A DNA stretch of 53,320 nucleotides from Patescibacteria group bacterium (GCA_040384765.1 JAZKIQ010000005.1:125927-179246), one strand, 5' to 3'. Positions 1,111 through 49,556 are shown, counted from the first letter of the stretch. The notes: generated by a model from the letters alone, not told the origin. Numbers and translations: made by a program.

Positions 1111-2095
1111 GACTTTTCTTTAAAGAAGTTCCCGCTTTATTGAAAAACTGGGAAAGCTCCTTGGTGAGTTTTTTGAGGCTTTCATCGTCGTACACACTCA
1201 CCGATGAAAGTGGAGAAGCAATCTTCTTCATGAGGGCAAGCTTCTTCTTGAGATCGTCGGGAGAAACCAGGTCTGTTTTAGTAAGGAGAACAAACTCAGG
1301 CTTTTTGGCAAGAGTCGAATCAAACGATTCGAGCTCATCTCGAATAATGCCATAGTCGCGCGCTAAGTCGTCGCTCTCGAGCGAGAGGCAATGCACGATA
1401 AATGTTGTGCGCTTTACGTGTCGGAGAAACTTTGACCCAAGACCCTTTCCCTGCGATGCCCCTTCGATGATCCCGGGAATATCCGCCATCACAAGCGCGC
1501 CTGCGAGCATGCCGAGGGATGGGTCGAGCGTAGTAAACTTGTACGCACCCACCTTGCTCTTCGCGCCAGTGAGCGCATTAAGCAAGCTCGACTTTCCAGC
1601 ATTAGGCAAACCAACAAGCCCGATGTCAGCAATAAGCTGGAGCTCGAGATACAGCTCTGCCTGATACCCAGGTCGGCCCTCCTCGAAGCGCTGAGGCTCC
1701 GTACCCCGCGCATGAGAAAAAGCGCGGTTGCCGCGGCCGCGCAATCCGCCTTTTGCAACAAGCACTCGCTCGCCAAGCGTAAGCAACTCGAAAGGGGGCT
1801 CGCCTGTTGTCTTGTTCACAACAACCGTCCCGCGAGGCACGGGAAGAAGAATATCGTCACCATCTTCACCCTGCTTATGGCGCCTTCCGAGCTCACCATC
1901 TTCGGCCTTAAAATCTTTTTCGTATCGATACCGAGAAAGATCCCCAAGTGCAGTGGTCACTTCGAGATAGATAGAGCCACCGTTGCCGCCATCAGAACCA
2001 CTCGGTCGGTAGTCCATATTGGTCTCACCAAAGGCAACTTTTCCCGTTCCACCATTGCCTCCGCGAACCTTAATTGTTACCTCATCGATAATCAT
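1103..2095 (-). CDS. obgE: GTPase ObgE/CgtA
   Basis: Gly-rich Obg fold at the N-terminus; GLVGLPNAGKSS, FTTL, DIPG, TKTD motifs. Confidence 0.95.
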   Translation of the reverse strand: MIIDEVTIKVRGGNGGTGKVAFGETNMDYRPSGSDGGNGGSIYLEVTTALGDLSRYRYEKDFKAEDGELGRRHKQGEDGDDILLPVPRGTVVVNKTTGEPPFELLTLGERVLVAKGGLRGRGNRAFSHARGTEPQRFEEGRPGYQAELYLELQLIADIGLVGLPNAGKSSLLNALTGAKSKVGAYKFTTLDPSLGMLAGALVMADIPGIIEGASQGKGLGSKFLRHVKRTTFIVHCLSLESDDLARDYGIIRDELESFDSTLAKKPEFVLLTKTDLVSPDDLKKKLALMKKIASPLSSVSVYDDESLKKLTKELSQFFNKAGTSLKKSHE

Positions 2096-48151: not shown

Positions 48152-48820
48152 ATGGTACGAAATCTACTCAGAAAGAGCCTGGAAACTGTTTTGGAGGTAC
48201 TCTTCCCGCTTTCATGTGCTCTCTGTGGCAAAAAAGAGGGCCTGGCTCTGTGCGTCGAGTGCGGCGTAGCGCTTGTCCGCACGAGGTGGTCAGAGGATCA
48301 GCTGTTCTCTTTTTTCTCGTATCAAAACTCGGACGTGCAAAAGCTTGTCCACGCGCTCAAGTACGAAAAGTATCAAGCAGTCGGAAAGCGTTTGGGTGAG
48401 CTCGTCGAAGAAGAGCTCACGGAAACACTCTTTGAAACAGGCCAGGGCTACTCAGAAGGAGAGCCTATCATTCTGCTCCCGATACCTCTCTCACACTCCC
48501 GCCTCCGAGATCGGGGGTTCAATCAGTCGCTTCGGATAGCAGAAGGAGTTTCAGAGACAAACCCATCGACCTATAGAGTAGAGTCGAAAGTCCTTTATAA
48601 AATAAAGGACACGGAAAGCCAAGTTTCAGTAAAAGACAAGCAAGCGCGTCTTCAAAACCTTAAAGGGACCTTTACTGTCCGCAACAAAGAGAAGCTCGCG
48701 GGAAAGGTTGTCATCATAATCGATGACGTATCCACCACAGGGGCCACAATGCAGGAAGCCTTTCGAGCGGTAAGCGAAGGCGCGCCTGCCAAAATAGTAG
48801 GCGTGACCTTTGCCCACTAA
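48152..48820 (+). CDS. comF: ComF family competence protein (Zn ribbon + PRTase fold)
   Basis: C..C..C..C, RGFNQ, IIDDVSTTGAT. Confidence 0.9.
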   Translation: MVRNLLRKSLETVLEVLFPLSCALCGKKEGLALCVECGVALVRTRWSEDQLFSFFSYQNSDVQKLVHALKYEKYQAVGKRLGELVEEELTETLFETGQGYSEGEPIILLPIPLSHSRLRDRGFNQSLRIAEGVSETNPSTYRVESKVLYKIKDTESQVSVKDKQARLQNLKGTFTVRNKEKLAGKVVIIIDDVSTTGATMQEAFRAVSEGAPAKIVGVTFAH

Positions 48821-48821
48821 G

Positions 48822-49124
48822 CTACCCTTCGATCCTCACATGAACACCATTTTCGATCTTGAACTTTCGCTTCTTGTTCTTTGCGATCTTTTGCACGATC
48901 TCCTTTTCAAGGTCAACACCGAGCATCTGTGCAAGCGACACGAGGTAGATAAATACATCGGCAAGCTCCTCCCCTACATCCGGTAGCTTTTTAACATATG
49001 CGTTAAACGCCTCGGAAAGCTCACCGTGAGTGAGACTAAACTCAAGGCCTACATCCGTCGTATTAAACTTCTTCTCGAGCTTGTTGCTCCAGATCTGTTT
49101 TTGTACTTTTTTAAAATCGAGCAT
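48822..49124 (-). CDS. MazG-like nucleotide pyrophosphohydrolase
   Basis: GELSEA..GEELADV..L..GVDL..KI.KN..R. Confidence 0.82.
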   Translation of the reverse strand: MLDFKKVQKQIWSNKLEKKFNTTDVGLEFSLTHGELSEAFNAYVKKLPDVGEELADVFIYLVSLAQMLGVDLEKEIVQKIAKNKKRKFKIENGVHVRIEG

Positions 49125-49165
49125 ATTTTTTAGGTAGTTTGCTTGCTTACCTTTCTTGCTTCATA

Positions 49166-49252
49166 CGGAGGAGGTGAGATTCGAACTCACGGAACTCTTG
49201 CGAGCTCGGCAGTTTAGTAAACTGCTACCTTAAACCACTCGGTCACTCCTCC
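49166..49252 (-). tRNA. tRNA-Ser with the unusual anticodon ACT
   Basis: GGAGGAG acceptor strand, GCAGT TT ACT AA ACTGC, long variable arm gagctc-gcaa-gagttc, TTCGAAT, G73. Confidence 0.9.
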
Positions 49253-49315
49253 CCAGGACCACCGTATCAAACTGTTTGAAAAAGCACCATGAGTACAGTA
49301 TAGTAAAACCTCATT

Positions 49316-49402
49316 GGAGGCGTGTCAGAGTGGTCGAATGTGCCCCCTTGCTAAGGGGGTAGGGTCTTAAAGCCCTCGGAGGTTCGAATCCTCCCGCCTC
49401 CG
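49316..49402 (+). tRNA. tRNA-Ser (anticodon GCT)
   Basis: GGAGGCG acceptor strand, CCCCC TT GCT AA GGGGG, long variable arm, G73. Confidence 0.93.
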
Positions 49403-49556
49403 TAATGATCCAAACAAAAGCGTTTTTATAGCTTTTTTTGGGTAATCATTACGATGAGGCGGGAGGATTCGAAAGCCGGAGCGCGGCGGCGCGAGGCGGG
49501 GTCGCAAAATTTTTCACGAGAAAAATATTTGTGACCGAATCCCAAGGAAGCCTCCG
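49403..49556 (+). repeat. tRNA-Ser 3' flanking element (antisense copy + core + direct copy)
   Basis: 18-nt antisense copy gaggcgggaggattcgaa at 49456-49473; core ggggtcgcaaaa..tgtgacc; direct copy gaatccc..gcctccg. Confidence 0.8.

Follow-up and report, generated by a model that had tools for sequence, protein, structure and literature searches.

The window, the whole stretch of 53,320 nucleotides analysed here (GCA_040384765.1 JAZKIQ010000005.1:125927-179246), contains eight tRNA genes according to ARAGORN, among them a tRNA-Ser(ACT) gene on the minus strand and a tRNA-Ser(GCT) gene on the plus strand that stand back to back (Table 1). Both are matched over their full length by Rfam RF00005, with 54.1 bits for the ACT gene and 51.6 bits for the GCT gene against a gathering score of 29, and the ACT gene spans model positions 1-71. 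In the minus-strand reading, the acceptor stem of the ACT gene has 7 bp, including G1-C72, G2-C71 and A3-U70, and is followed by the discriminator G73. This is the serine identity set known from work on E. coli. The D stem has 3 bp and the D loop contains GG. The anticodon stem is GCAGU/ACUGC (5 bp) with the loop U-U-A-C-U-A-A, the 18 nt variable arm forms a 6-bp stem in the minimum free energy (MFE) fold, and the T arm is GUGAG-UUCGAAU-CUCAC with a 5-bp T stem. The MFE of the gene is -36.2 kcal/mol (z = -4.35), and none of 200 shuffled sequences folds as well. An earlier note, made from the sequence alone, had described an intact class II cloverleaf with serine identity elements and the loop TT-ACT-AA, and the gene calls, the fold and direct reading of the sequence, in which the anticodon site (49216-49218) is AGT on the plus strand, bear out both descriptions.

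Table 1. Features of the divergent tRNA-Ser locus, in window positions
Feature	Position	Strand	Basis or remark
tRNA-Ser(ACU) gene, class II, 87 nt, no encoded CCA	49166..49252	-	ARAGORN, Rfam, fold, covarying homologues
Anticodon ACT (A34 at 49218, C35 at 49217, U36 at 49216)	49216..49218	-	Direct sequence; gene position 35 in ARAGORN
Divergent spacer between the ACT and GCT genes, 62 nt	49253..49314		Promoter-like hexamers for both genes
tRNA-Ser(GCU) gene, canonical AGY reader, conserved partner of the ACT gene	49315..49403	+	ARAGORN, Rfam
Long hairpin, about 93 nt, with a T-run in the loop	49382..49474		Sequence; just downstream of tRNA-Ser(GCT)

The two genes are identical at 59 of 90 aligned positions (66%), thus the ACT gene is not a one-base variant of its neighbour, and the divergent, sequence-distinct arrangement that had been noted before stands. 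The acceptor stem and T arm of the ACT gene match those of the tRNA-Ser(UGA) of the same genome exactly, which fits an ordinary elongator tRNA handled by the same SerRS and EF-Tu. Within the spacer, matches to the sigma-70 consensus are present for both genes: TTGAAA-17-TATAGT on the plus strand (49276-49304) and CTGACA-17-TACTAT on the minus strand (49328-49300), the latter extending into the GCT gene. A consensus scan thus finds two promoter-like sites, as against 0.5 expected in shuffled sequence. The neighbours recognized by a Pfam scan, PilM, a ComF-like PRTase, a MazG-like protein, a peroxiredoxin and RecG, are ordinary chromosomal genes, and no mobile-element context was seen among them.

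The hairpin downstream of tRNA-Ser(GCT) includes an inverted copy of the 3' end of that tRNA at 49441-49474, running from the T loop to the 3' strand of the acceptor stem with 8 nt more. It also accounts for spurious Rfam matches to miRNA precursors at 49382-49474. The hairpin may serve as a terminator or in processing, or may be a trace of recombination, and its tie to the ACT gene is uncertain. A similar inverted copy, in this case of the 3' end of a tRNA-Met, lies beside that tRNA in one relative (L038, about 1400-1480). Directly beyond the hairpin of the window, at 49479-49519, the summed contig depth in sequencing run X1 rises to about 192 from about 6.5 in the flanks, and several short contigs of other organisms end there. 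This segment therefore seems to be common to many genomes in the sample; it has no Rfam family match. L038 also contains a conserved tRNA-like element (about 1480-1640, minus strand) that has a TT[G/A]CTAA loop on a 6-7-bp stem, a GTTCGA T-loop-like sequence and an acceptor-like closing stem. It was also matched in six other places (G269:C42, G345:C6, G042:C2, G325:C15, G277:C2 and G163:C2), and in G203 such an element directly follows two tRNA-Met genes. It is called by neither ARAGORN nor Rfam.

The source genome has 822,710 bases in 12 contigs and is 99.8% complete. Its relatives include members of the Patescibacteria group, Candidatus Paceibacteria, Zambryskibacteria, Taylorbacteria and Lloydbacteria, and the organism is a Parcubacteria-type CPR bacterium. 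Run X1, a DNA run kept as contigs, holds the window sequence almost in full, whereas run X2 was left out as it shares only a small part of the sequence words, on conserved parts of tRNAs. A Logan contig of 1832 nt from X1 covers 48700-49504 with no differences at a depth of about 6.5, and so no differing letter is found at 49218, where read support had been called for. As X1 is probably the source sample, this contig is not independent biological support. No RNA run was listed among the sequencing runs that carry the sequence.

A search of 401 genomes of the order with the pattern TTACTAA-N18-30-GTTCRANTC, which combines the ACT anticodon loop with the T loop, found matches in 91, while the reversed control pattern gave about 23 matches. 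The class II Ser(ACT) form, TTACTAA-AC[CT]G[CT]C-(variable arm)-GTTCGAATC, is present in 86 of the 401 genomes and in 38 of 118 families, as counted by hand. ARAGORN was run on 26 of these 86 loci and called tRNA-Ser(act) in every one, the other 60 genomes being judged from the matched string alone; it called none at four fetched loci where the match was not tRNA-like. In some families nearly every genome has the gene (f60, 6 of 6; f12, 5 of 6; f55, 5 of 6; f44, 3 of 3). In the family of the source genome it is present in that genome alone out of four, the other three being 89-91% complete. About four fifths of the genomes of the order (315 of 401) are without the ACT form. Beyond the order, in a phylum sample of 401 genomes, it occurs in 13 of 377 genomes of other classes, including one locus (L070) confirmed by ARAGORN, and in 1 of 16 from other orders of the same class. 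The survey of relatives that the earlier note had proposed thus finds the gene conserved, with 86 carriers in the order and 14 more elsewhere in the phylum. Ser(ACT) is widespread in the Parcubacteria/Patescibacteria and is not a private oddity of the source genome.

Of the 86 ACT-bearing genomes of the order, 84 have a Ser(GCT) that could be detected: 69 by the loop pattern, two by ARAGORN calls adjoining the ACT gene (L045 and L056), and 13 of the remaining 15 by a relaxed pattern. Two genomes, G175 and G397, have no Ser(GCT) under either the loop or the relaxed pattern. Ser(ACT) therefore supplements Ser(GCT) and does not replace it. By comparison of coordinates, the GCT gene is within 2 kb of the ACT gene on the same contig in 58 of the 86 genomes; the distance is often no more than 90-300 nt, and both orientations occur. 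The back-to-back pair in the window thus represents a conserved arrangement. In several named Parcubacteria records (L077, L079-L082, L087 and L092), tRNA-Ser(GCT) lies upstream of recG; the tRNA-recG neighbourhood of the window is therefore conserved as well. The Ser(GCT) tRNAs of the order come in two distinct body types. The one with the anticodon stem CCUCU/AGAGG is typical of ACT-bearing genomes. The other, with ACGGU/ACCGU, is found mostly in genomes without the ACT gene, and its anticodon arm resembles that of the ACT tRNA.

Covariation was assessed in an alignment of 26 distinct ACT copies on which the cloverleaf was imposed, giving 25 pairs and 650 cells. Of the 650 stem cells, 99.5% pair, and 15 of the 25 pairs have changed on both sides, with all five helices involved. 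The covariation score is 0.53, compared with 0.18 for shuffled partners, none of 500 shuffles reaching 0.53, and with at most 0.11 for slid partners. The five pairs tested in the variable arm are paired in 97.7% of cells, with double changes in four of the five, whereas acceptor pairs 1-4 are invariant in all 26 copies. That the anticodon loop does not vary among the homologues follows in part from the search itself, since its pattern demanded TTACTAA. Judged from these homologous sequences, the ACT gene is a genuine tRNA gene with clear signs of purifying selection.

A tree of 99 Ser tRNAs was built from 84 columns, the anticodon columns having been removed. In it, 25 of 27 ACT copies form a single supported clade (96/97) nested among UGA-type bodies, while the copy from the source genome and one from another class fall outside this clade. 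A single clade for all 27 is not rejected by the AU test (p = 0.715), and the likelihood of the constrained tree is higher. With only 84 columns and a poorly resolved tree, no firm claim can be made on the donor isoacceptor. The tree would be compatible with a single old origin followed by many losses.

The earlier note had raised the absence of tadA as one way in which A34 could stay unmodified. In the 99.8% complete source genome, the TadA model NF008113 has no match at E<=10, the control being positive in 12 of 14 reference genomes, and no ADAR/ADAT1-type domain (PF02137) is present. The sole CDA-fold deaminase of this genome (PF00383, 49.6 bits) is best matched by the dCTP/dCMP deaminase models of NCBIfam, all five of its PDB matches are dCMP (or CMP/dCMP-type) deaminases, and its gene adjoins that for thymidylate synthase (thyA). 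PF14437 scores 25.4 bits at most, on this same dCMP-deaminase-like ORF. The family models, the PDB matches and the thyA neighbourhood together rule out this lone deaminase as TadA. Its deaminase domain forms the C-terminal half of a 313-aa open frame (C10:43286-44230; L062 1432-2373, minus strand), which runs opposite to the thymidylate synthase gene and overlaps it. Translation probably starts within this frame, and no Pfam family matches its N-terminal portion.

Arg(ACG) is the universal TadA substrate. The 43 tRNAs of the source genome include Arg with the anticodons GCG, TCG, CCG, TCT and CCT, and ARAGORN finds no Arg(ACG) among them. In all fetched loci of relatives, ARAGORN called Arg(gcg) 12 times and Arg(acg) not once, and no ANN tRNA besides Ser(act). 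TadA is reported, in the text of PMC11066159, to be specific for the ACG loop; the UUACUAA loop of the ACT tRNA has U36, unlike the Arg2-type ACG loop, which has G36. On the gene content, A-to-I editing is apparently absent from the source organism.

None of five complete ACT-bearing genomes has a TadA match. Of 121 genomes in the order with a completeness of 95% or more, nine match the TadA model at E<=1e-5 and none is above the curated cut-off; the only ACT carrier of the nine is G154, and its matching protein is RibD. Outside the order, 13 of the 14 ACT-bearing genomes are without a TadA match, compared with a match in 48 of 151 phylum-sample genomes; none of these counts is corrected for relatedness. 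Since related deaminases match the model too, TadA itself would be present in at most 48 of the 151. The ACT-bearing genome outside the order that does have a match, G506, encodes a 170-aa protein (74 bits) that is equally close to guanine deaminase and TadA; it has no match to the Arg(ACG) pattern, which is a narrow one. In other classes, the TadA-model matches of G499, G576, G475, G428 and G401 each contain one in-frame TAA. This may reflect alignment past the end of the gene, or may be a matter of genetic code or gene integrity.

The meaning of the AGN codons was assessed by aligning crude ORFs from 40 relatives (20 kb each) with the ORFs of the source genome, giving 385 best matches, of which 311 HSPs with at least 35% identity were used. 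Over these 311 HSPs, AGT codons of the source genome are aligned with Ser in 32% of cases and AGC codons in 36%. AGA is aligned with Arg in 43% and Lys in 20%, Ser being outside its six commonest partners, and AGG is aligned with Arg in 58%. In the ACT-bearing relatives the alignment with Arg is 72% for AGA and 67% for AGG. Recoding of AGA or AGG is thus ruled out: both align mainly with Arg, and tRNA-Arg(TCT) and tRNA-Arg(CCT) are present. The suggestion of unusual AGN decoding in this lineage, put forward in the earlier note as an alternative, is not supported, on the same grounds and in view of the alignment of AGT with Ser.

AGT is the rarest Ser codon of the source genome, with 1363 of 15595 Ser codons (8.7%) in 717 ORFs, and AGT makes up a smaller share of AGY (AGT/AGY = 0.33) than NNT does in any of the other NNT/NNY pairs there. 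Codon demand is therefore rejected as the reason for the retention of the ACT gene in this genome. Across genomes there is a weak link between the gene and AGT use, to which the source genome is an exception. Pooled AGT/(AGT+AGC) is 0.65 in 20 ACT-bearing genomes and 0.51 in 20 genomes lacking it; after adjustment for the other NNT/NNY ratios the difference is +0.076 +/- 0.033 (Mann-Whitney p = 0.03), based on 20 kb per genome and uncorrected for phylogeny. The source genome keeps many CNN tRNAs, which hints at a decoding style that would favour Watson-Crick readers. It also has Ile(TAT) beside Ile(GAT). ARAGORN found no tRNA-Asn, Val(GAC) or tmRNA in this genome, whose completeness of 99.8% is based on marker genes. 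In a genome of the same order (G013), it calls a tRNA with the anticodon TTA, one expected to decode UAA, a stop codon (L128, 15792-15864).

Taken together, the observations make it probable that the ACT gene encodes a serine elongator tRNA with an unmodified A34, maintained by selection, that reads AGU by Watson-Crick pairing and is tolerated as editing is absent; its expression, the state of A34 and the specificity for AGU are predicted from sequence. SerRS would charge Ser(ACU) through the class II identity elements, independently of the anticodon. A34 would stay adenosine in an organism without a tRNA adenosine deaminase, and the ACU anticodon would then read AGU through a Watson-Crick A34-U3 pair. 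The hazard associated with I34, the reading of AGA as Ser, does not arise when no deaminase is present. GCU alone reads AGU in most bacteria, and here the neighbouring tRNA-Ser(GCU) would read AGC and could wobble on AGU, while AGA and AGG would stay with tRNA-Arg(UCU/CCU). Ser(ACU) would thus be a supplementary, AGU-specific isoacceptor, made tolerable by the loss of TadA. Of the alternatives offered in the earlier note, the findings favour that of a dedicated AGU decoder in which A34 is predicted to be unmodified. A wider reading is more tentative, and we hold it with a little less than even confidence: that this is an old extra Ser isoacceptor, probably of single origin, and the first natural split-box A34 tRNA under selection across a large bacterial radiation, which became possible after the loss of TadA and Arg(ACG).

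The simplest objection to the dedicated AGU reader is that the ACT gene is an artefact of assembly or binning, or a decaying pseudogene of Ser(GCT). The coverage of about 6.5, in the single run with the sequence, is low. Against this, a second assembler produced the identical sequence, a homologous body with the same anticodon recurs in 86 genomes within the order and 14 beyond it, the gene is only 66% identical to the adjoining GCT gene, and its cloverleaf is intact with covariation. These points effectively refute the objection, the chance of which is negligible, and answer in the negative both the assembly error and the lack of conservation in relatives that the earlier note had allowed for. 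A role outside the ribosome, such as that of a seryl donor for aminoacylation of the cell envelope or of a sensor tRNA, with a rare anticodon that keeps it out of bulk translation, is very improbable. Specialised, non-proteinogenic tRNA isoacceptors do exist in Gram-positive bacteria, and AGT being the rarest Ser codon of the source genome would suit such a role. However, in acceptor stem and T arm the tRNA is identical with the canonical Ser(UGA) elongator of this genome, AGT is used throughout its ORFs and more so in other ACT-bearing genomes, and no Fem/MprF-type gene is beside the ACT gene.

Two further alternatives accept a functional tRNA. If A34 were modified, to inosine by an unrecognized deaminase or in some other way at the wobble position, decoding would be broader or different. 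Such a modification is suggested by the statement in PMC11066159 that A34 in cellular tRNAs is nearly always modified, by the long N-terminal extension of the CDA-fold deaminase ORF and by the TadA/guanine-deaminase-like protein of G506. It is nevertheless improbable in view of the affinity of the only deaminase in the source genome with dCMP/dCTP deaminases, its pairing with thyA, the failure of the TadA search there even at E<=10 and the replacement of Arg(ACG) by Arg(GCG); moreover, a tRNA with I34 would read AGA, a codon that is aligned here with Arg and Lys. The remaining alternative, somewhat less improbable but still unlikely, is that Ser(ACT) is a nearly neutral, redundant isoacceptor, kept since it does little harm and not for any need of AGU. 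The retention of GCU in nearly all ACT-bearing genomes, the many genomes of the order without the ACT form and the rarity of AGT in the source genome all accord with neutrality, as does the report in the main text of a preprint that single-copy ANN tRNAs have no fitness cost in E. coli (bioRxiv 10.64898/2026.05.15.725136). A neutral gene would, however, be expected to decay in streamlined genomes of roughly 0.6-1 Mb. Instead, all five stems keep pairing through compensatory changes over 38 families and several classes, ACT and GCT remain linked in 58 of 86 genomes, and a single origin, which would imply long retention, is not rejected.

An A-starting anticodon for a codon box that is split between two amino acids is, to our knowledge, almost never kept by bacteria. 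The near-absence of A-starting anticodons in bacteria is termed a paradox in the same preprint (bioRxiv 10.64898/2026.05.15.725136), which describes a survey of GtRNAdb. As given there, split-box ANN tRNAs are sporadic among the cultured bacteria surveyed and always accompanied by a GNN partner, clade-wide retention of ANN tRNAs is confined to four-fold boxes, and a TadA homologue is present in 88% of species with a non-ACG ANN tRNA. The main text of the preprint makes no mention of CPR or Patescibacteria. It also reports that overexpression of Ser-tRNA(ACU) in E. coli leads to better growth, this being among the few split-box ANN tRNAs to do so. In Table 1 of PMC11066159, an orthogonal tRNA with an unmodified ACU anticodon in E. 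coli gives 9.4% at AGU and 0.36% at AGG, with AGC and AGA below detection. In the openly accessible literature searched, neither a natural Ser(ACU) tRNA of bacteria nor A34 tRNAs of CPR are described, and a split-box A34 tRNA kept throughout a clade is not reported. The same holds for PMC5424206 and PMC8629427, where looking up the terms returned no natural Ser(ACU) or CPR A34 tRNA.

If the wider reading, of an old Ser(ACT) made possible by the loss of TadA and Arg(ACG), is true, the avoidance of ANN anticodons in split boxes would be contingent on A-to-I editing and not due to an intrinsic defect of A34, and the decoding scheme of these organisms would lean on Watson-Crick readers. They would provide a natural system in which to ask whether misreading driven by inosine is the real barrier to split-box ANN tRNAs, and whether a Watson-Crick reader of AGU brings a translational benefit. 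For pipelines that annotate CPR genomes or model their codon use, Ser(ACT) should not be dropped as a prediction error.

The closest ordinary counterpart of the ACT tRNA is the bacterial tRNA-Ser(GCU) of the E. coli serV type, which is likewise class II, serves the AGY half-box and has the same identity features. The ACT tRNA differs in having A34 rather than G34, in a distinct body that is closer to the Ser(UGA) type, and in its expected reading of AGU only, where Ser(GCU) reads both AGC and AGU. Allo-tRNAs, which are defined by an 8/4 or 9/3 geometry of acceptor and T stem together with an anticodon for a non-serine codon, are also comparable. Mukai et al. in 2017 reportedly described them from metagenomes as tRNAs of Ser identity with odd anticodons. 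They share with the ACT tRNA the long variable arm, the Ser identity, an unexpected anticodon and an origin in uncultured bacteria. The ACT tRNA, however, has the canonical 7/5 cloverleaf, and its ACU anticodon pairs with a serine codon, AGU, and thus implies no recoding.

Natural tRNAs with an unmodified A34 are described in section 4.3 of PMC11066159, namely tRNA-Thr(AGU) of Mycoplasma and the yeast mitochondrial tRNA-Arg(ACG). As presented there, they resemble Ser(ACT) in that A34 is encoded, and presumed unmodified, in a reduced genome where A-to-I editing is missing or not used; their codon boxes are four-fold ones, of which they are often the main reader or the only one, by super-wobble. 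Ser(ACT), in contrast, belongs to a split box, in which a misread codon would mean a different amino acid, and coexists with a GNN reader. Leu(AAG) and Thr(AGU), which are conserved in the Lactobacillales and Mollicutes, are further non-ACG ANN anticodons in bacteria, again in four-fold boxes. The sporadic split-box ANN tRNAs of the GtRNAdb survey, as far as its main text describes them, also co-occur with a GNN partner, but Ser(ACT) differs from those cases in being kept across many families in which TadA is mostly not found. The engineered ACU tRNAs of E. coli, in the published accounts cited above, have the same anticodon, are unmodified and specific for AGU, and are well tolerated or beneficial when charged with Ser. 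These are laboratory constructs in a host that contains TadA, whereas Ser(ACT) is a natural, inherited gene.
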